The translations under genes were made by a program, and so were the position numbers. The notes under the pieces are model-generated. The model was not told where the DNA came from, searched no databases, and saw only the letters and a list, made by a program, of their open reading frames with translations. Positions 4,976-54,516 of a stretch of DNA of 64,000 nucleotides are shown here, piece after piece. Source of the stretch: an uncultured Candidatus Saccharibacteria bacterium (GTDB lineage: Bacteria; Patescibacteriota; Minisyncoccia; UBA6257; GWB1-50-10); the NCBI GenBank assembly GCA_964365955.1, contig CAYISA010000004.1, positions 2,939 to 66,938 of the forward strand. Reading direction: 5' to 3'. Each line of letters opens with the position of its first letter. The stretch's first letter is position 1.

Positions 4976-6505
4976 TTATTTCAGAACTCTCACAAAACTT
5001 CCTGGTGGAACCTTGTCTTTATCTTGCGGCAACACATAATGTATGTTTTTTGTGGCCTGTTCCGATGGTAAAAACGTATCGGTTAAAAACATCACCGTTT
5101 GCGTAGGCATGGGGAGCCCGCGCACATCCGTGCCTTTTGCCTCCACAATAATATACTTTTGTGTCTCGCGCGGCAGAATATTCAGTTCGTCGGCGAGTTT
5201 AACGTCAGATTGGATAAATGCATCCGCCGTATTTGGATTTTTACCCCACGTAATAAAGTAGCTCCGGAACGGTTCCAAAATCAAAACGACAAACAACACC
5301 ATTGTCCCAACGCGAAGCAGGACGGTGCCATAGGCAAATTGCGAAAGCACTTTTTTGATATGTTCATAAAGCCAGACGCTTCCGATTGCCGCAAGGATCA
5401 TGACTGCGGGGATCATAAGGATAGAACGGAGCGCATGAGGGAGTCCTTCGTTTGAAACCACAACCGGAAGCGCCGCGACAATAAGCCACGAAACACTAAT
5501 AAAAAGAGGAAATTCAAACTCATTTCTTTCTCTCCATTTTTTAGATACGCATCGCACGGCAAGAACGATCCCTAAAAGAAAGAAAACGCCGACCGGGAAA
5601 AAGAGGAGCGGCCGACCCGCAATATTGTGCCGCCAGTTGCCGTCTCCATAAACATTGAACGAGCCGAGTGTGATTCCGATATTCTTTGCCAGGTCGATCA
5701 CGGGCGTAGGAGAGCTAAAAATGGAAATCTGGCTTGTGCGCCCCAGAAAATCCTGCGGATATTCCGCAAAAAAGATAAGGAGCGGAGTGAGCGCAAGAAC
5801 AAATCCCAAAGAAAACCAGGTCAGGAATTTCAAAAAAATCCGCCACGGATATTTTTTGAAAAGAATATAAGCGGCAACAGCGAATAAAAGGAGCGGCGTT
5901 GCGCGGTAGGCGATATAGGAATGGAACCCGAGCCCGTAAACCAGACCAGCAAAAAATGGCAGAAGTCGCACGGGTTGTTTTTTGGTTTCAGCGGACATTT
6001 TACGGAGCGCCATCAGGATAAAAAATAATCCCCATGTCAGAAAAAACGGGGCCATAATTGCGCGAAATCCGATGCGGGAAAAATTAATGTGCCAGAAGGA
6101 TGTGGCGGTAAAAAAAGCCGCAAAAAGTGGTATCCAGGGATGAGTTTGTTTTTTTGAAAATCGCAAGAGCTCTCGCGTCAAAAAATAAACGCCCAGTACT
6201 GTAAGTACTCCGAATAATGCGCTCGGAACCCGGAGCATCCAGGGTTCAATGTTCCCGGTCTCCCGCATAAAGAAGTTCAGAAAGTAGGCCTGAATGTTGA
6301 TAAACAGTCCTTCTCTGCCGTTGTTTTCGGGATAGAAAACTTTCGGTTCCGTAGCGCCGTGGAGCACCTCAAGCGCGTTATTTCCATTCATCGCCTCGTC
6401 GGGATAGAGTCCGGGCGGAAATGCGGAAAGTTGATAGAAACGAAAAAAGGCCGCAATAAGCACGATCCCTATGACGATCCATGTCGTTTTGAATGATGGC
6501 GCCAT
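4976..6505 (-). CDS. GT-C fold glycosyltransferase (ArnT/PMT-like, polyprenyl-phosphate-sugar dependent)
   Basis: 509 aa with many TM helices. First extracytoplasmic loop has the YPDEAMNG acidic motif typical of the ArnT/PMT_2 family. Confidence 0.65.
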   Translation of the reverse strand: MAPSFKTTWIVIGIVLIAAFFRFYQLSAFPPGLYPDEAMNGNNALEVLHGATEPKVFYPENNGREGLFINIQAYFLNFFMRETGNIEPWMLRVPSALFGVLTVLGVYFLTRELLRFSKKQTHPWIPLFAAFFTATSFWHINFSRIGFRAIMAPFFLTWGLFFILMALRKMSAETKKQPVRLLPFFAGLVYGLGFHSYIAYRATPLLLFAVAAYILFKKYPWRIFLKFLTWFSLGFVLALTPLLIFFAEYPQDFLGRTSQISIFSSPTPVIDLAKNIGITLGSFNVYGDGNWRHNIAGRPLLFFPVGVFFLLGIVLAVRCVSKKWRERNEFEFPLFISVSWLIVAALPVVVSNEGLPHALRSILMIPAVMILAAIGSVWLYEHIKKVLSQFAYGTVLLRVGTMVLFVVLILEPFRSYFITWGKNPNTADAFIQSDVKLADELNILPRETQKYIIVEAKGTDVRGLPMPTQTVMFLTDTFLPSEQATKNIHYVLPQDKDKVPPGSFVRVLK

Positions 6506-6535
6506 TCTTGTATAATTTAATTATACAAGAATCCC

Positions 6536-6949
6536 ATGCCTAATGTCGTTAATTTTGGACCTGACTTTGAACGGAGTCTCACGCGCATCAAGGAAGACAT
6601 TGCGGAGCAGAAATCTATCCCCGGGAATGAGCAGATGGAAGAACGCGAGCTGATGAGACAATCGCTTGAGAAAATGGCCGCCGCGGTTGCGGTTCCCCCC
6701 GCGCAAGAACCCCCCGCTTCGTCCGCGCCACAGGCGGACGCGTCTTCGCTTCCCGCGTACCTTTCGAATGCCTCCGCCGATCCGCGTGTAAAAGAGGAAG
6801 TCCAGCGATTGGTGAATCTTGCGTTTAGCGATCACATCGAAAAGGCGATTTCTGAAGCAAAAAAACACCCCCCGTTTGTGGTGGACGCCCTGCACGACGC
6901 GCTGGTGGATAAATTAATTCCGGAAATGAAACGCCGGGGCATGCTTTAG
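6536..6949 (+). CDS. Hypothetical protein
   Basis: 137 aa ORF in an intergenic position, Pro/Ala-rich centre, no recognisable domain. Confidence 0.4.
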   Translation: MPNVVNFGPDFERSLTRIKEDIAEQKSIPGNEQMEERELMRQSLEKMAAAVAVPPAQEPPASSAPQADASSLPAYLSNASADPRVKEEVQRLVNLAFSDHIEKAISEAKKHPPFVVDALHDALVDKLIPEMKRRGML

Positions 6950-6964
6950 CCGTTTTTTATCTTC

Positions 6965-9337
6965 ATGCTTTCCACACTTTTTTTCGGCGTGATTTTAGGA
7001 GGCATCTTTGCGGGTGCGTATGCGTGGTTTCGGCGCGCGCAATATCAAAAACTTCTGGAAGGATTGCAGGTGCGTTTGATTTTAGTGCGCCTTCCGCTCG
7101 GAGGAAAAGAAGGCCGCGATCTCATGAAAGAAATCGCATTGACCGAGCAACTGATTGCTGCGCTTGCGGCGTTTAAAAAACCGTTCGTATTCGAAGTGGC
7201 GGTACCGTATGTCGGAGAAGAGATTCATTTTTATATTTCCGTTTCGGAACAGTATGTGGACGCCGCTGTCCGCCAGGTACAGTCCATGTGGGACGATGCC
7301 GATATTCGCAAGGTGGAGGATTACAATATTTTCAATTATCAGGGTTACACGACGGGTGCCTGGCTGAAAGAAAAAGAAAAGTTCGTGTTGCCGATTCGCA
7401 CCTATCAGGAACTCATGAGTGACACTTTTTCAAGTATCTTGGGTGGTTTCGCGCAGACAAAAGAGGTGGGCGAAGGCGCGGCACTGCAGATTGTCGTCCA
7501 GTCCGCAAGCGCGAAGGCAAAAAAAGAAATTGTTGCCTCACTGGGCTTTTTGAAAAAAGGCGGGAAATTAAAAGAAGTGCTTCATGCGGAAAAAATTGGT
7601 GCCTCGGACGTAGTTTCTGCGGCTCTGGCGGGGAAAAAATCGGGGAATGTTCCGGGACCGCAAGAGTCGAAAGTGATCGACGAAATGGCCGTGAAAGCAA
7701 TCGAGACAAAACTGGCAAAACCACTTTTTGACGTTAATGTTCGCATTTTGACCTCTGCGCCGAGTCAGCTACAGGCGGAGTCCTTGCTGGATGGAATTTC
7801 CGCCGGATTTTCGCAGTTCGGCACGACAGGGAGGAACGAGTTTCAGATGACAAAACCGCGCGCGATCAAGAATCTTGTCCGTGCGTTTTCATTTCGCGCG
7901 TTCGACGAAAAACAGAAAATGACGCTTACCAGCGAAGAGCTGGCGAGTATTTTCCATTTTCCAACCGTGTTTACGTCTACTCCGAAAATCAAATATCTCA
8001 AAGCCAAGGAAGCGGCGCCGCCACGCAATCTTCCGACATTCGGGACCCTTCTCGGCGAGAGTTCTTTCCGCGGCGAGTCAAAACCGATTTTCTTGACCGA
8101 CGAAGATCGCCGCCGCCATCTTTACGTTATCGGTCAGACCGGAACCGGCAAGACGACGCTGTTGAAGGGAATGATGCTCGACGACATCCGAAAAGGAAAA
8201 GGCATCGGCGTTATCGATCCGCACGGAGAGTTTGCCGAGTTCGCGCTCGCGAACATTCCGCCCGAACGCGCCAAAGACGTTATCGTGTTCGACCCCGCGG
8301 ATTTTGAGCGGCCGGTGGGACTCAACATGCTCGAATATCATTTTGATCGTCCGGAGGAAAAAACATTTATTGTGAATGACATGCTGGGCATTTTGGACAA
8401 GCTCTATGATTTGCGGCAGACGGGGGGCCCCATGTTCGAGCAGTATATGAGGAATGCTCTCTTGCTGCTCATGGAAGACGCGCCGAATCAGCCTGCGTCG
8501 CTTGTGGAGCTGCCGCGGATTTTTACCGACAGCGCATGGCGCGCAAAAAAACTGGCACGCATCACCAACCCTATTGTGATCGATTTTTGGGAGAAAGAAG
8601 CGACCAAAGCGGGCGGAGAAGCGTCACTTGCGAATATCACGCCTTATGTCACCTCGAAATTCAGCAATTTTATTGCAAATGATTATATGCGCCCGATTAT
8701 CGGCCAGCCGAAATCTGCATTCAATTTTCGCGAAATCATGGATCAGGGGAAAATCCTGATTGTAAGTTTGTCGAAAGGAAAGATCGGCGATGTGAATATG
8801 GGATTACTTGGGATGATTGTGATCTCAAAACTCCTTTTTGCTGCTCTTTCGCGTGTGGATATTCCAAACGAATCGTCCCGAAAAGATTTTTATCTTTACA
8901 TCGACGAGTTCCAGAATTTCGCGACCGATTCCATTTCCGTGATTCTTTCAGAGGCGCGTAAATACCGATTGTCGCTTACCATTGCCCATCAATTCATCGC
9001 CCAGCTTCCCGAAAAAATTCGCGACGCGGTATTCGGGAACGTCGGCTCCGCAATCGCCTTGCGCGTGGGACCCCAGGACGCGGAATTTTTGACCAAACAA
9101 TTTACGCCGGTGTTTAACGAAAGCGATTTATTGAATATCGACAACCTGAACGCGCACGCGCGCATTTTGGTCGACGGCATGGTCGCACCGCCGTTTAATA
9201 TTCGCGTAAATACCGCTGCGTTCTCCGCAAAAGGAGACGTACAAATGGCCGAGCGGCTGCGCAATCTCTCACGCCTTACCTATGGACGTGATCGGGGCGA
9301 AGTTGAAGAAGAAATTCGTCGCAGATTAAGAGAATAA
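6965..9337 (+). CDS. Type IV secretion coupling-protein-like ATPase (VirD4/TraD/TraG-TrwB family, membrane anchored)
   Basis: 790 aa. N-terminal TM helix, Walker A GQTGTGKTT near aa 390, Walker B-like YLYIDEFQNFA, C-terminal TraD/TraG-like region (AHQFIAQLPEKIRDAVFGNVGS). Confidence 0.6.
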   Translation: MLSTLFFGVILGGIFAGAYAWFRRAQYQKLLEGLQVRLILVRLPLGGKEGRDLMKEIALTEQLIAALAAFKKPFVFEVAVPYVGEEIHFYISVSEQYVDAAVRQVQSMWDDADIRKVEDYNIFNYQGYTTGAWLKEKEKFVLPIRTYQELMSDTFSSILGGFAQTKEVGEGAALQIVVQSASAKAKKEIVASLGFLKKGGKLKEVLHAEKIGASDVVSAALAGKKSGNVPGPQESKVIDEMAVKAIETKLAKPLFDVNVRILTSAPSQLQAESLLDGISAGFSQFGTTGRNEFQMTKPRAIKNLVRAFSFRAFDEKQKMTLTSEELASIFHFPTVFTSTPKIKYLKAKEAAPPRNLPTFGTLLGESSFRGESKPIFLTDEDRRRHLYVIGQTGTGKTTLLKGMMLDDIRKGKGIGVIDPHGEFAEFALANIPPERAKDVIVFDPADFERPVGLNMLEYHFDRPEEKTFIVNDMLGILDKLYDLRQTGGPMFEQYMRNALLLLMEDAPNQPASLVELPRIFTDSAWRAKKLARITNPIVIDFWEKEATKAGGEASLANITPYVTSKFSNFIANDYMRPIIGQPKSAFNFREIMDQGKILIVSLSKGKIGDVNMGLLGMIVISKLLFAALSRVDIPNESSRKDFYLYIDEFQNFATDSISVILSEARKYRLSLTIAHQFIAQLPEKIRDAVFGNVGSAIALRVGPQDAEFLTKQFTPVFNESDLLNIDNLNAHARILVDGMVAPPFNIRVNTAAFSAKGDVQMAERLRNLSRLTYGRDRGEVEEEIRRRLRE

Positions 9338-9342
9338 AACAT

Positions 9343-9987
9343 ATGACAAAAAAAGATTATAAATTGGTCACGCTTATCGGTTTTTTGGTCGGTTGGCTGG
9401 TGCTTCCGGTTATTGCAAATATAGGGAAGCGCTATGGAGTGACGGTCAGCATCCCGCTGGGCGCCGCGTCCGTTCTTGGTTTTTCAGCTTTTGCGCCTCT
9501 CGCGCTTTGGGTGCTGCATCTGCTTTCAAAAAAAATTCCGGTGTTTCTGCAGTTCGGAAAATTCGCGGCCGTGGGGACGCTGAACACGCTTTTGAATTTT
9601 GCGGTGTTGAACACGCTGATTTTTATGACGGATATTTCGGCGGGGTGGACCTATACCGGGTTCACCGTCATCGCCTTTTTTATAGCGACCACCAATAGTT
9701 ATTTTTGGAATAAGTTTTGGACGTTTCAGAGCCGTATTCCGCTGGGGTGGGGTGAGTATGCGCGGTTCGCCCTTTTTACCGTCGGCGGAGTGATTTTGAA
9801 TTCGGGGGTTGCATCGCTCATTGTGAACGGAATAGGGGCTCCCCAGGGAGTTGCGCCGGAGTTATGGGCGAATGTGGGCGCCCTGGGCGGCGTTGCCGTG
9901 TCTTTTCTCTGGAATTTTTTGACCTATCGCCGTATCGTGTTCCGTGCCAGCGGCGGTTCCCCGGAAGCGGCAAATCCCGTACAATAA
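9343..9987 (+). CDS. GtrA family membrane protein (polyprenyl-phosphate-sugar flippase-like)
   Basis: 214 aa, 4+ TM helices, GtrA-like signature FAAVGTLNTLLNFAVLNTLIF. Confidence 0.7.
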   Translation: MTKKDYKLVTLIGFLVGWLVLPVIANIGKRYGVTVSIPLGAASVLGFSAFAPLALWVLHLLSKKIPVFLQFGKFAAVGTLNTLLNFAVLNTLIFMTDISAGWTYTGFTVIAFFIATTNSYFWNKFWTFQSRIPLGWGEYARFALFTVGGVILNSGVASLIVNGIGAPQGVAPELWANVGALGGVAVSFLWNFLTYRRIVFRASGGSPEAANPVQ

Positions 9988-9994
9988 TAGAATA

Positions 9995-10795
9995 ATGAAA
10001 CCGTTTCTTTCCGTCATTATCCCCGCCTACAACGAGTCCCAGCGTCTTCCGCAGACGCTTGTTGATGTGGATAAAAAATTGAGCGAGGTAGAATATTCCT
10101 CGGAAGTGCTGGTGGTAAGCGACGGTTCCAAAGATGCGACGGCCGAAATTGTTCGGCGATTTGCGGTTCACATGAAAAATCTGAAGCTGATTGATAATAA
10201 GGAAAATCACGGGAAGGGGTGGGTGGTGCGACAGGGGATGATGGCTGCAAAAGGGAACTGGCGACTTTTTATGGATGCGGATAATTCCACAACTGTGGAT
10301 CAGTTCAATCTCATGCTCCCGTTCTTTAAAGAAGGATACGATGTGGTGTTCGGATCACGCGCCGTTTCCGGGGCAAAACTGGTGCCACCCCAACCGTGGT
10401 ATCGGCAGATTTTAGGGCGGGGGGGGAACGTGGTTATTCAACTCTTTGCACTTCCGGGCGTGCGTGATTCGCAGTGTGGATTCAAATGTTTTTCGGAAAA
10501 TGCCGCGCCGCGCGTTTTCGGGCTTGCTCGCGTTGACCGGTGGGGGTTCGACGTAGAAGCATTGGCGCTTGCAAAAGTGCTGGGCTACCGCGCAAAAGAA
10601 ATGCCTGTCACGTGGGTGAACGACACGCGTTCCACCGTGGGGTTGAAAGCGTATCTTTCGACGCTGTGGGATGTAGGGCGCATCTGGTGGTGGTTAAAAC
10701 GCGGCAGTTATCCGTTAAACTCGAACTCTTTAAAGCCCGAACCGCCGCGCACGGAAGAAATCGATTCAAATAGTTCAACCGGCGCATTTGAATAA
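9995..10795 (+). CDS. GT2 family glycosyltransferase (GtrB/DPM1-like polyprenyl-phosphate hexosyltransferase)
   Basis: N-terminal LSVIIPAYNES, DGSKD and DAD motifs of GT-A fold GT2. Start moved to the MKPFLS Met to avoid overlapping gtrA (track ORF starts at 9944). Confidence 0.75.
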   Translation: MKPFLSVIIPAYNESQRLPQTLVDVDKKLSEVEYSSEVLVVSDGSKDATAEIVRRFAVHMKNLKLIDNKENHGKGWVVRQGMMAAKGNWRLFMDADNSTTVDQFNLMLPFFKEGYDVVFGSRAVSGAKLVPPQPWYRQILGRGGNVVIQLFALPGVRDSQCGFKCFSENAAPRVFGLARVDRWGFDVEALALAKVLGYRAKEMPVTWVNDTRSTVGLKAYLSTLWDVGRIWWWLKRGSYPLNSNSLKPEPPRTEEIDSNSSTGAFE

Positions 10796-11866: not shown

Positions 11867-11894
11867 TTGACTTTTTATAACGGTATGCTATAAT
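11867..11894 (+). promoter_or_regulatory. Sigma70-like promoter of DGR target gene
   Basis: TTGACT (11867-11872), 16-nt spacer, TATAAT (11889-11894). AGGAGA RBS 8 nt upstream of the ATG at 11980. Confidence 0.5.
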
Positions 11895-11979
11895 TCAAGC
11901 AGAAACCTTACCAACGTCTACTTGGAGCCCCTGACCAAATGATGGGGTGGAGAGTAGACACTATACAGGAGATACAACA

Positions 11980-12570
11980 ATGGCAAAGTCCGATATGGTT
12001 CGCGGAATGCTTTTCGGAGTCGAGTTCCTTACAAACGTCGTGAAAGAAGCAAGAAAGCTTGGCAGAACCGATGAGGAAATTCACGAATGGATGAAAACAG
12101 AATCTGATGGGGCAAAGAAAACCGCACAACTCATCGTTGGCACTGCGAAAAACGTCCTTCGTATTCTCGCAAATCTCTCCCTTGCCGACCGTATCGCCCG
12201 TGGGAAGTACGACTGGGTAAACCCCGACATCACAAAAGGGCATTTCCCCACAAACGTGCCTGTAGACTACTCTCCAGACCACAAACTCTATCACTTTGAT
12301 CGTCCCATCTCCTCCGAAGAGGCGATCAAATGGATGGAAAAGGATGGATTCCGCCCGGGGAACGGAGCAGAGCTTCTTGCCTTTGGGGAAACCTTCCGCG
12401 ATGAGCAGAAGGAGTATCCTATCGTAGCTCTTGGTTCGGTCTGGCAGTACTTGGATGGCCACCGCCGCGTGCTGGTGCTCTGCTCGCATGCTTCGGGGCG
12501 CGGGCTGGGTCTGCTTGGGTTTGAGGGTGGCTGGGATGGCAACTATCGTTTCCTTGCGGTGCGCAAGTAA
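11980..12570 (+). CDS. DGR target protein with C-terminal variable region (C-type-lectin/FGE-like fold predicted)
   Basis: Track ORF 11947..12570. The ATG at 11980 has the strong RBS. The last ~47 codons are the VR. C-terminus ...GGWDGNYRFLAVRK resembles the ...GGSWNN...GFRLxR end of CLec-fold DGR targets. Confidence 0.75.
   Translation: MAKSDMVRGMLFGVEFLTNVVKEARKLGRTDEEIHEWMKTESDGAKKTAQLIVGTAKNVLRILANLSLADRIARGKYDWVNPDITKGHFPTNVPVDYSPDHKLYHFDRPISSEEAIKWMEKDGFRPGNGAELLAFGETFRDEQKEYPIVALGSVWQYLDGHRRVLVLCSHASGRGLGLLGFEGGWDGNYRFLAVRK
12427..12568 (+). repeat. DGR variable repeat (VR)
   Basis: 142-bp near-copy of 12889-13030. It differs at 24 positions, every one an A in the TR. Confidence 0.9.
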
Positions 12571-12626
12571 CTTGGACTTGGGACTTTGATGCTTAGATTT
12601 TTAATCTCTTAGTCCCTTAGATTTTT

Positions 12627-12660
12627 GACCCGTTTCGATTTTTGAAACGGGTCTTTTGTT
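12627..12660 (+). terminator. Hairpin plus U-tract downstream of VR (intrinsic terminator and/or DGR target-recognition hairpin)
   Basis: gacccgtttc-gattttt-gaaacgggtc followed by ttttgtt, about 57 nt after the target-gene stop. Confidence 0.55.
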
Positions 12661-12888
12661 ATAATAATTATGGATAGTAGGTTGGAATGCCTGCGGCTAC
12701 GGTTTCAGGCGACCGAATTCCGAAATTTCTTTGTGCAGAGTGGGTGCGGCTACGGTTTCGCCCAGCGCCACGTGGAAGTTTCTAACCCATAAAGATACTT
12801 GGTGTAGAGTATTAAGGAATTTTTTAGATTCCGAATACGATTCAATCCCAAGAATATTCAAGGGATGGTGGAACGGAAGATACTTTGC

Positions 12889-13030
12889 ACACTTGGTTCG
12901 GTCTGGCAGAACTTGAATGGCAACCGCAACGTGCTGGTGCTCAACTCGAATGATTCGAGGCGCAAGCTGAATCTGAATAGGTTTGAGAATGACTGGAATG
13001 GCAACTATCGTTTCCTTGCGGTGCGAAAGT
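12889..13030 (+). repeat. DGR template repeat (TR)
   Basis: Invariant partner of the VR, A-rich at codon positions (AAC/AAT-rich when translated). Not a protein gene (track ORF 12865..13194 is read-through). Confidence 0.9.
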
Positions 13031-13042
13031 CTCTTTATGTGT

Positions 13043-13450
13043 TCATCCCGCCCTTGGCGGGATTTCTTTCAATGATAACTGTTTTATCCAGCCGCCAAGC
13101 ATTCTTCCAATTTCATCGAGTCGTTCTGAAATCGCTATATATTTTTTACTATCAAATGACTTTGTTTCCCACGCGATTTGAAGGAAGAATTTAGCGAGAT
13201 CAAGTTTTGCTCCGGCGGCACGCACAAAAGAAATGCGGTTTTCGGGTATAGCGTAACTTGCTGAAAAGAGAAGCTCCGTGGTATCAAGTAGGTAAACATC
13301 AATTTTCTCGCCAAGTGTGTACCGTGCGGATTTTTGGAGATGTGGCATCATTTCACGCCACAATTTGTATGCCGCCACTAGTTTTTGGATTATCGATTGA
13401 TTATTTCGTCGGGGGGGGGTGTTCCGGGGTTCTTTAGTATCATGTTTCAA
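13043..13450 (-). CDS. avd: Avd-like accessory variability determinant (four-helix-bundle protein)
   Basis: 135 aa. C-terminal helix ISERLDEIGRMLGGWIKQL and upstream AKFFLQIAWETK match the Avd/four-helix-bundle family pattern. Abuts the TR and is encoded on the opposite strand. Confidence 0.7.
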   Translation of the reverse strand: MKHDTKEPRNTPPRRNNQSIIQKLVAAYKLWREMMPHLQKSARYTLGEKIDVYLLDTTELLFSASYAIPENRISFVRAAGAKLDLAKFFLQIAWETKSFDSKKYIAISERLDEIGRMLGGWIKQLSLKEIPPRAG

Positions 13451-14413
13451 AGAATAACAAGTATAGAAAATTTAGTCGAGGCGTGGGAGGAATTTATAAA
13501 AGGAAAGCGGCACAAAAGAGATGTGCAGGGGTTTTTGCTGCATTTAATGGACAACATTCTTGCGCTTCACCGCGATCTTATGGAGCATGCGTACCGCCAC
13601 GGCGGGTACGCCGCATTTGCTGTTTCTGATCCCAAGCCGCGCAGTATTCATAAGGCTCCGGTTCGTGACAGGCTACTCCACCACGCGGTACATCGCGTGC
13701 TTTATCCCCCTATGAATAAACGGTTTATTGCAGACTCATTTTCTTGTCGAACTGGCAAAGGAACGCATGCCGCTCTCGGCCGCTTTCAGAGGTTTTTCTA
13801 TACAGTAAGTAACAACAATACCAAACAATGCTGGGTTTTGAAGTGCGACATTCGAAGATTTTTTGCGAGCGTTCATCATGAAACACTTTTCAACATTTTA
13901 AAGAAAACCATCCATGATTCTGATGCACTTTGGCTTTTACGCCAGATTATTGGCAGTTTTTATATCGGTGAATATGGCAGGGGACTTCCCCTTGGCAATC
14001 TTACCTCGCAACTCTTTGCGAATGTATATATGAACGAATTTGATCGGTATGTAAAGCACACGTTGAAAATAAAACACTATATTCGATATGCAGATGATTT
14101 TGTCATTTTTTCTAACGATCGCGAAGAACTGGGACAGATTATCAAACCCATTAGAGAATTTTTATGCGACGCGCTTTCCTTACAACTCCATGAAGATAAA
14201 GTTGTGATAGAGACCATCGGTTCCGGTATTGATTTTTTGGGATGGGTGCATTTTCCGGATCATAGGGTGTTGCGCACATCAACAAAACGAAGGATGTTAA
14301 GGAAATTGCAGGCAAGGGGAAATAATACTGCCACCATCGCATCTTATTTAGGACTTTTGAAGCATGGGAACACATGTAAACTCGAGGAGGAAATTTCGAA
14401 TAGAAATTGGTAG
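13442..14413 (+). CDS. DGR-type reverse transcriptase
   Basis: RT motifs present: motif 4 LGNLTSQ (DGR hallmark [I/L]GxxxSQ rather than the group II QGxxxSP) and YADDFVIF. About 320 aa, no maturase or endonuclease domain. Start placed at the Met of MFQRITS (track start 13385). Confidence 0.85.
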   Translation: MFQRITSIENLVEAWEEFIKGKRHKRDVQGFLLHLMDNILALHRDLMEHAYRHGGYAAFAVSDPKPRSIHKAPVRDRLLHHAVHRVLYPPMNKRFIADSFSCRTGKGTHAALGRFQRFFYTVSNNNTKQCWVLKCDIRRFFASVHHETLFNILKKTIHDSDALWLLRQIIGSFYIGEYGRGLPLGNLTSQLFANVYMNEFDRYVKHTLKIKHYIRYADDFVIFSNDREELGQIIKPIREFLCDALSLQLHEDKVVIETIGSGIDFLGWVHFPDHRVLRTSTKRRMLRKLQARGNNTATIASYLGLLKHGNTCKLEEEISNRNW

Positions 14414-53250: not shown

Positions 53251-54516
53251 ATGCCGGTTCCCCCCCCCGCCGATAATCCAGAATTATTGAAAGTAAGTTC
53301 GCGTGTACGCACGCGTCTTTCGGACGTGGATTTTTCACATCACCTTTCCATGCGCGGACTTTTTAAACTCTCGTTCCGTGCGTTTAAGAGCCGTTCACTG
53401 CGAACCATTCTCACAACCTTAGGCATCGGCGTGGGTATCGGCACCGTGCTTTTTTTGGTGTCTTTGGGATTCGGGCTGGAACGCATCTTGGTTGAGCAGA
53501 TCGCGAAAACGGAGGATTCGCTCTATTCCATGGAGGCATATTTTCCTTCCGAAGAGGTGTTTGGTATTTCAGAAAAAGAATTAAAGGCGGTGGGCGAAGT
53601 TCCACGCGTGGTCGAGGTTTCACCGATTGCGGATCTTTCAGGCGAGATGCTCGCACAAAATACAAGTGGAAATGTGAAAGTGCGTGTGGTGGAGCCGAGT
53701 TATTTCCGTCTTTCGGGCACCGTGCCGGAGCTCGGTACTCCTTTAGTAGAAGGGGATCCGAATGGAGTGGTCATCACGAGCGCCGTGCTCAAATTCTTTA
53801 ATCTTGAACCGAGCCAAAAAACCCTTGGGATTCCGTTCAATCTTTCCGTTGCCCTTCCGCAGGAGTTTGTGCTTCCCCAGCAGTTGAAGATTGTGGGCAT
53901 TATTCAGGACGATGCGCTTGACCCCACGGTTATTGTGCCGCGCGGGTTATTGCCGGGGGCGACACTTCAGTACCGGAGCGTTTTGGTGCGTGCCGCGGCG
54001 GCGGATGATGTGCTTACCGTGCGCGACACGCTGTTGGAGCGCGGATTTTCCATCACCGCAAAACTGGATTTGATCAACCAGGTAAAAAAGGTCTTGACCA
54101 TCGCCACGGTTATTTTGGGCGCATTCGGCGTAACCGCGCTTACGGTCTCCGCGATCGGAATGTTCAACACCATGACGATTGCATTGCTGGAACGCACCTA
54201 CGAAATCGGCATTATGAAGTCCTTGGGTGCGACGAACGGCGACATCCAGCGGCTTTTCTTGATGGAGGCATTTCTGATGGGATTTCTAGGAGGCGTGATG
54301 GGGTTGATTATCGGAATCTTGGGTGCCGACATCTTTAATCTTGCGCTGAATTTGCTTGCAAAATCACTGGAAGGAAAAGCAGTCGATCTTTTTGACCGGC
54401 CGTGGTGGTTTATTTCGGGGCTCGTTGGGTTTGCGTCGCTTGTAAGCTTGATCACCGGTTATTATCCGGCCCGGCGCGCCGTCAAACTTTCTCCGCGCGA
54501 AGCATTTAAGAAGTAG
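53251..54516 (+). CDS. ABC transporter permease, FtsX/MacB family
   Basis: N-terminal TM, large periplasmic domain, C-terminal 3-TM FtsX domain (...MKSLGATNGDIQRLFLMEA...). Confidence 0.75.
   Translation: MPVPPPADNPELLKVSSRVRTRLSDVDFSHHLSMRGLFKLSFRAFKSRSLRTILTTLGIGVGIGTVLFLVSLGFGLERILVEQIAKTEDSLYSMEAYFPSEEVFGISEKELKAVGEVPRVVEVSPIADLSGEMLAQNTSGNVKVRVVEPSYFRLSGTVPELGTPLVEGDPNGVVITSAVLKFFNLEPSQKTLGIPFNLSVALPQEFVLPQQLKIVGIIQDDALDPTVIVPRGLLPGATLQYRSVLVRAAAADDVLTVRDTLLERGFSITAKLDLINQVKKVLTIATVILGAFGVTALTVSAIGMFNTMTIALLERTYEIGIMKSLGATNGDIQRLFLMEAFLMGFLGGVMGLIIGILGADIFNLALNLLAKSLEGKAVDLFDRPWWFISGLVGFASLVSLITGYYPARRAVKLSPREAFKK

Follow-up and report, generated by a model that had tools for sequence, protein, structure and literature searches.

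The systems closest to the locus described in this work are the diversity-generating retroelement (DGR) of BPP-1 and the DGRs of the Candidate Phyla Radiation (CPR). DGRs of the CPR and DPANN were reportedly the subject of work by Paul and colleagues in 2017, which the 2018 survey of Wu and colleagues is said to cite. In the searched parts of that survey, arrangement B3, written 'TR-(avd)-RT' for the order of template repeat (TR), accessory gene and reverse transcriptase (RT), makes up 90% of the CPR set (Wu et al. 2018, PMC5758913). In the ribonucleoprotein of BPP-1, studied by cryo-EM, one spacer strand located 3' of the TR makes two adjacent duplexes: with the TR 3' end it forms the template:primer duplex, and with a segment upstream of the TR it forms the 'cPRT stop' (bioRxiv 10.1101/2023.10.23.563531). 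An Avd-binding stem-loop is found just 3' of the TR (Handa et al., bioRxiv 10.1101/2023.10.23.563531), and the survey of other DGRs in that work was confined to 40 nt on the 5' side and 100 nt on the 3' side of the TR. Here, we analysed a 64,000-nt stretch of an uncultured Candidatus Saccharibacteria genome (contig CAYISA010000004.1; hereafter the window), which carries a DGR cassette in the order target(+), TR(+), avd(-), RT(+). It is very probable that this cassette is a chromosomal DGR of the CPR lineage with the architecture target-TR-(avd)-RT and with the template RNA, the mechanism and the repeat tract described below.

The repeat pair and the proteins of the cassette

The original prediction described a complete DGR, with a variable repeat (VR) in the last 47 codons of the target gene and a TR further downstream. 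Both repeats were recovered in the intervals it had proposed (Table 1), and each of the components it listed was found and held up in an independent test. A direct repeat joins 12430-12573 to 12892-13035 at an offset of 462 nt. When the TR and VR are aligned base by base over 142 nt, there are 24 mismatches, and all 24 are located at TR adenines (hypergeometric P = 1.3e-18). Thus, 24 of the 36 TR adenines are changed, 14 to G, 6 to C and 4 to T. In the frame of the target open reading frame (ORF), 34 of the 36 adenines occupy codon position 1 or 2, and the TR has 11 AAC or AAT codons. The TR could specify approximately 5e19 protein variants, with stop codons possible from two AAG codons. The 28 nt preceding 12564 are identical and invariant in the two repeats; the VR and TR differ at 12564/13026, and the divergence follows AAGT. 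A GC-rich inverted repeat was sought 3' of the VR, and the sole hairpin there is the terminator-like one, which starts 57 nt downstream. Scanning the 64-kb window for further VRs revealed no second one.

The RT, for which the DGR-specific motif 4 had been claimed, contains LGNLTSQ and YADD, and both motifs are invariant among 14 relatives. Among solved structures, its best relative is the BPP-1 bRT (PDB 8ub7; 163 bits, E=1e-46, nearly full length), and the next-best solved RTs, of the group II/retron type, reach 75 bits (4.5e-20), 88 bits behind. The RT also matches PHROG 1423 at 2e-107, and an exact look-up of its 342-aa version gave no match. These comparisons bear on a different explanation, in which the repeat is an ordinary duplicated gene fragment that lies beside an unrelated RT from a group II intron, a retron or a defence system and undergoes no templated mutagenesis. 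The best NCBIfam match of the RT is in fact the group II intron RT/maturase model, at 128 bits, and the NCBI label of the protein is 'reverse transcriptase/maturase family'. However, this match is far under the cut-off of 300 bits, in a collection that contains no DGR RT model, and retron St85 (63 bits, cut-off 235) and the DRT models are also far under their cut-offs, while the BPP-1 bRT stands ahead of any other solved RT. In addition, Rfam 15, searched also at permissive thresholds (E<=10), yielded no intron, retron or other RNA, only chance matches of terminator hairpins. With all mismatches confined to adenines, at a chance probability of approximately 1e-18 and in a pattern that recurs in 32 relatives, the simple duplication is effectively refuted.

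The Avd protein matches Pfam PF22296 (bAvd) at 44.7 bits, over the gathering cut-off of 40, and PHROG 3206 'Avd protein of DGR' at 1.7e-13. The presence of an Avd-like gene was therefore correctly predicted; the prediction was silent on its orientation: the gene runs antisense to the other parts of the cassette, on the minus strand.

The target protein was looked up by exact sequence from either start (11947 and 11980) without a match, and its homologues, approximately 297 proteins of approximately 200 aa each, are all from Patescibacteria. The family alignment has the scaffold GSVW..G.R.V..L......R.L.L......W....RFLAVRK, and the hypervariable columns that interrupt it coincide with the AAY codons of the TR. 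Sequence searches against Pfam, NCBIfam, PADLOC, PHROGs and the PDB returned chance matches only. In target-family models, the C-terminal domain models as a C-type-lectin/formylglycine-generating enzyme (FGE)-like fold, ahead of which the N-terminal part forms a three-helix region; hydropathy revealed no signal peptide and no membrane segment.

The cassette was compared with about 110 related loci. Among the 80 GTDB loci that encode a target homologue, 33 contain complete cassettes, arranged as target(+), 256-408 nt, TR(+), avd and RT(+). The avd gene is on the minus strand in 32 of these 33, the exception being L043, as it is in each of the 37 metagenome loci whose upstream DNA is long enough. 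The TR/VR pairs of the relatives span 96-146 nt and carry 12-28 adenine mismatches versus 0-5 others. Because the gene order matches the published B3 arrangement, the locus belongs to a known kind of DGR; it has the standard CPR arrangement, is typical of the host group and is thus not unusual for its host. Some relatives are decayed. L087, which lacks RT and Avd, has kept a TR with 13 non-adenine mismatches, and L012, which encodes the closest target homologue, has lost the TR, avd and RT and kept the 5' RNA domain described below (170 bits). Loss of the DGR appears to be frequent in the target family, leaving frozen targets. The coordinates recorded for the decayed relatives are 5686-5926 in L012 and 5664-6034 in L087, and only RT or Avd fragments are left in L014, L025 and L055.

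Table 1. Coordinates of the cassette features in the window
Feature	Position	Strand	Remarks
Promoter-like site of target	11867-11894	+	TTGACT-16-TATAAT, TG-extended; 11/12 positions match (consensus scan)
Target (variable-protein) gene	11980-12570	+	196 aa; ORF opens at GTG 11947; AGGAG precedes ATG 11980
VR	12427-12568	+	final 47 codons of target
Intrinsic-terminator-like hairpin and U-run after target	12627-12662	+	12-bp stem (12627-12653 + U-run), then TTTTGTT
Extended -10 promoter of template RNA, TGTTATAAT	12657-12666	+	TGnTAnAAT
Conserved structured 5' domain of template RNA	12672-12890	+	covariation, covariance model
Helix P1	12689-12697/12702-12710	+	GGYTAMGG loop
Helix P2	12741-12751/12754-12764	+	GGYTAMGG loop
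Long-range helix LR	12788-12801/13026-13039	+	3' strand is last 5 nt of TR plus linker
Helix P3	12802-12813/12879-12890	+	abuts TR 5' boundary
Helix P4	12816-12820/12828-12832	+	
Helix P5	12843-12853/12858-12870	+	
TR	12889-13030	+	142 nt; 36 adenines; 21 recodable codons
Stem-loop and U-run just 3' of TR	13045-13070	+	8-bp stem; candidate template-RNA terminator and/or Avd-binding stem-loop
avd	13043-13450	-	longest ORF 135 aa from TTG 13450; alternative ATG 13443
G9 homopolymer	13411-13419	C9 on avd strand	within avd N-terminal extension; 22 nt 5' of RT ATG
RT gene	13442-14413	+	323 aa; ORF spans 13385-14413; ATG 13442 is the start in public gene calls

The structured RNA domain 5' of the template repeat

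The 215 nt from the target terminator to the TR are conserved across the related loci at the nucleotide level. At the aligned position of the RNA promoter, TAnnnT is present in nearly all of these loci, and most of them have the TG extension too. RNAalifold, run on 32 sequences, predicted 41 pairs, 37 of them compensatory. In an alignment that includes the TR 3' flank, 69 pairs in 10 helices were counted, and 92.5% of the cells are paired, compared with 41-48% when the partners are slid by 1-3 columns. Changes on both sides occur in 52 of the 69 pairs, and none of 500 shuffles matches any of the observed measures. The minimum free energy fold of the single window sequence 12673-13072 yields the same helices (z=-2.65). 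The loop motif GGYTAMGG, shared by P1 and P2, constitutes a short direct repeat (D5).

The long-range helix LR has 13 pairs, 9 of which show changes on both sides. Replication came from 46 independent loci of metagenomes, in which cognate strands form more stable duplexes than non-cognate strands do (Wilcoxon p=5e-4). In the window, VR and TR stop being homologous 5 nt into LR at one end and within 2 nt of the P3 base at the other. The strand 12788-12813 pairs with both flanks of the TR, the 3' flank in LR and the 5' flank in P3, so that the TR is a clamped 142-nt loop. A simple search just 3' of the TR found a stem and U-run in 32 of 33 related loci, with a few automatic picks differing from the hairpin visible by eye, and the stem sequences vary between loci.

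A covariance model of the domain (R1) scores 212 bits in the window and matches 45 of 81 sources, once per locus, as well as 62 of 80 RT-anchored metagenome loci. The matches are always located 5' of the TR on the RT strand, except for a truncated minus-strand fragment at a contig end (L114). In the metagenome loci with more than 1.6 kb 5' of the RT, the RNA domain is present in 36 of 37 and a window-type target in 5 of 37; the domain therefore belongs to the RT/Avd lineage and not to the target. Rfam 15 contains no family matching the domain. No description of it was found in the searchable literature, although an earlier one may exist, and the searched parts of Wu et al. 2018 (PMC5758913) mention neither the domain nor the G tract described below. 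As a separate observation, L172 has two copies of the domain (334-568 and 2703-2928) and two avd matches within 3 kb, which suggests tandem or duplicated cassettes.

By analogy with BPP-1, an RNA of approximately 400 nt (about 12673-13070) would bind the RT and Avd. Synthesis of cDNA would be primed near the predicted LR/P3 junction, the TR would be copied with random insertion opposite adenines, and synthesis would stop at P3; the cDNA would then replace the VR and could give up to approximately 5e19 protein variants. LR would accordingly play the part of the template:primer duplex and P3 that of the stop in a permuted DGR RNA, while P1, P2, P4, P5 and the conserved single strands may bind the RT and Avd. 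The stem-loop 3' of the TR may bind Avd, terminate the RNA, or both. Such a permuted RNA, with its clamping strand 5' of the TR, could end right after the TR, which would explain the placement of avd antisense directly behind it.

The domain could instead be an independent regulatory RNA, such as a leader, a small RNA or a riboswitch-like element, which would control transcription into the TR or antisense to avd and would form no part of the reverse-transcription complex. Such a function would agree with the domain having its own promoter and with the terminator-like hairpin 3' of the TR, the GGYTAMGG loop repeated in P1 and P2 could be a site for a protein or a ligand, and the domain is linked to the RT by sequence comparison. 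However, the domain travels with the RT/Avd lineage rather than with the target, both LR, at the 3' boundary of the TR, and P3, next to its 5' boundary, show covariation, and the geometry of the TR clamp is that seen for the BPP-1 spacer. We therefore regard a purely regulatory role as improbable and favour a domain that acts in reverse transcription. A covariation-supported RNA of the commonest CPR DGR type offers a concrete, testable template RNA of approximately 400 nt for reconstitution and engineering.

The repeat tract at the avd/RT junction and the state of the element

Contingency loci with homopolymeric G/C tracts are known from phase variation in Neisseria, Campylobacter and Bordetella (PMC2831843, PMC8355987). 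At the position of the G9 of the window, 92 of 105 RT-holding loci have a tract of G7-14 (modes 9 and 10), and 5 more have a dinucleotide repeat, (GT)8-18 or (TC)17, which brings the loci with a simple-sequence repeat to 97 of 105. Of the 99 G/C runs of at least 8 nt in 1.06 Mb of loci, 98 are G runs on the cassette strand. The tract length shows no modulo-3 preference, and between the tract and the conserved Avd core, the related loci have no conserved canonical start codon. A conserved ATG overlaps the first RT codons; avd is in frame with it in 6 of 6 loci without a repeat, compared with 17 of 69 tract-bearing loci that have this ATG. Over 6,765 nt, the contigs L168 and L172, which come from different metagenomes, differ in the tract alone, G8 versus G10; neither length keeps avd in frame, as G9 would. 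As judged from these sequences, the tract suggests the signature of a contingency locus, in which Avd, and possibly the RT too, would be expressed in a phase-variable or slippage-dependent way. Slipped-strand changes in the length of the G/C tract in the 5' part of avd would switch the expression of the machinery. No paper linking DGRs to such tracts was found in the searchable literature.

Some further observations concern this junction and similar tracts. In most relatives (e.g., L020, L023, L043 and L071), the RT and avd overlap head-to-head by approximately 21 nt (ATGAAAATTCAATTGnnnCAT), which encode MKIQLxH and, from the opposite strand, MxQLNFH; the junction of the window departs from this (ATGTTTCAA / TTGAAACAT). 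Elsewhere in the window, a C9 at 53260-53268 occupies codons 4-6 (MPVPPPA...) of a 421-aa ORF (53251-54516), a position typical of a phase-variable gene; the protein has the look of an FtsX-type ABC-transporter permease, judged by eye only. The GT2 glycosyltransferase gene (9944-10795) contains a G8 at 10419-10426, which three assemblies (L009-L011) show unchanged and which is possibly another contingency tract.

Exact copies of the RT, TIM and GalT-like proteins are present in metagenomes of Hainich groundwater (well H43) and in an NCBI metagenome-assembled genome. The exact target protein, or anything more than 61% identical to it, is absent from the protein collection, while the flanking genes are 100% identical in at least five assemblies. 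In three to five independent assemblies (L001-L011), contigs matching the window at 100% identity end at 12202/12227 and restart at 12613/12638, and the contig ends shift by 25 nt between two sets of assemblies. We take these sets to have been built at k=31 (Logan) and k=55 (SPAdes-style ENA). The shift of 25 nt indicates that a second sequence context exists for approximately 12173-12667, a segment comprising the part coding for the lectin domain, the VR, the target terminator and the RNA promoter. The breaks could come from a second copy of the module or from a strain variant. The TR/VR repeat was considered as their cause and rejected, given the 25-nt shift and a longest exact match of 28 nt, which is shorter than k=31. 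The other context was searched for and not found. Separately, the left break coincides with a domain boundary at target residue ~65, and many homologues match only from residue ~65 on.

The DGR was probably active recently, because there is no non-adenine TR/VR mismatch and all ORFs are intact, compared with the decayed L087 and L012. It is nonetheless conceivable that the cassette is intact but silent, that is, a recently active DGR that is in a phase-OFF state or unexpressed, with its VR frozen in the population. In its favour, 52 of 69 related loci have a tract whose length takes avd out of the frame of the conserved ATG, the G9 would be out of frame if the window used ATG 13443, five assemblies of the population share the G9 and identical flanks, and the decayed relatives without RT show that such elements are frequently lost. 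Set against these points are the clean repeat pair with its intact ORFs, the longest avd ORF, which is in frame from TTG 13450, and the VR-containing piece, which is unassembled in every short-read assembly looked up. A silent cassette thus seems rather unlikely, and we keep to the reading given at the outset.

Several points weigh against this reading as a whole. The start of avd is ambiguous, since the G9 is in frame with TTG 13450, while ATG 13443 would need G10. The NCBIfam model for DGR Avd (DivGenRetAVD) gives 63 bits, under its cut-off of 80, and a recognisable RT promoter was looked for at the locus without one being found. Helix LR includes one of the TR/VR differences (A versus C at 13026), which may be of the IMH/IMH* (initiation of mutagenic homing) type. 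VR heterogeneity in this population was judged from assembled contigs, and the k-dependent contig ends point to a second context of 12173-12667 rather than to VR variation alone; the breaks would fit VR heterogeneity without proving it. A broader proposal, that a permuted RNA, with the RT-binding domain, the primer and the stop all 5' of the TR, and a hypermutable tract that gates avd are common to the whole CPR B3 lineage, is put forward tentatively and at somewhat less than even confidence. If the tract is a genuine switch, cells would place targeted hypermutation under stochastic ON/OFF control, and such a phase-variable switch on a targeted hypermutator would be relevant to how cells cope with the cost of a DGR.

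Genomic setting and comparison with known systems

The neighbours of the cassette encode GtrA, a GT2 glycosyltransferase, a GalT/HIT protein, TIM, FtsW/RodA, YceG and RpoB. The setting of the DGR is therefore chromosomal and among housekeeping genes, in agreement with the surroundings described in the original prediction; the promoter that it had also listed has a counterpart in the promoter-like site of the target (Table 1). Among the upstream genes seen in L009 (window 5798-9342), one encodes a 790-aa protein with DUF87/TraG-TrwB-like Pfam matches (type IV secretion coupling ATPase), which adjoins GtrA and a glycosyltransferase.

The DGR itself is one more well-documented case from the CPR, with a modelled lectin-fold target, in a class known to be abundant there; of more interest to specialists are the avd repeat tract and, 5' of the TR, the RNA domain that clamps it. 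Compared with the B3 DGRs of CPR/DPANN, the gene order, the strands, the host group and the chromosomal location are all alike, as is the small target protein with a C-terminal VR, and no difference is apparent at the level of description of the searched parts of the survey (Wu et al. 2018). Most CPR VR classes are given no fold in those parts, whereas the target family of the window models as lectin/FGE-like. The DGR variable proteins Mtd and Treponema TvpA (2y3c) have a C-type lectin/FGE fold as well; in comparison, the target domain of the window is much smaller, has no sequence match to Pfam FGE-sulfatase or any PDB chain, and is preceded by the three-helix region in a protein that, by hydropathy, lacks a signal peptide and a membrane segment.

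With respect to contingency loci, the tract of the cassette is alike in comprising 7-14 G/C close to the start of a coding region, in a length not tied to threes, in the substitution of dinucleotide repeats and in being the sole change between two contigs. It differs in that the gene controlled would be an accessory factor of a hypermutation machine rather than a surface structure, and in that the change in length was seen in sequences, between the contigs of two metagenomes.

Finally, the DGR of BPP-1 (mtd-avd-TR-brt) shares with the window a homologous RT (E=1e-46) and Avd, adenine-specific differences between TR and VR, AAY codons and a C-terminal VR of lectin fold. In both systems, the two ends of the TR are held by two adjacent duplexes with one continuous strand, a stem-loop lies just 3' of the TR, and the order of the two duplexes along the strand from 5' to 3', LR and then P3 in the window, is the same. 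On the other hand, the host is a cell in the window and a phage in BPP-1, avd is antisense and placed between TR and RT in the window, and a simple-sequence repeat is located at its avd/RT junction. The Rfam RT-10 model of the BPP-1 spacer gives no match, and the stretch between TR and RT is the antisense avd instead of a structured spacer of the BPP-1 type. The clamping strand and a large structured domain are located 5' of the TR in the window, whereas the clamping strand lies in the spacer 3' of the TR in BPP-1. This comparison suggests that the clamping of both TR ends by one strand is conserved, although the position of that strand in the RNA is permuted.

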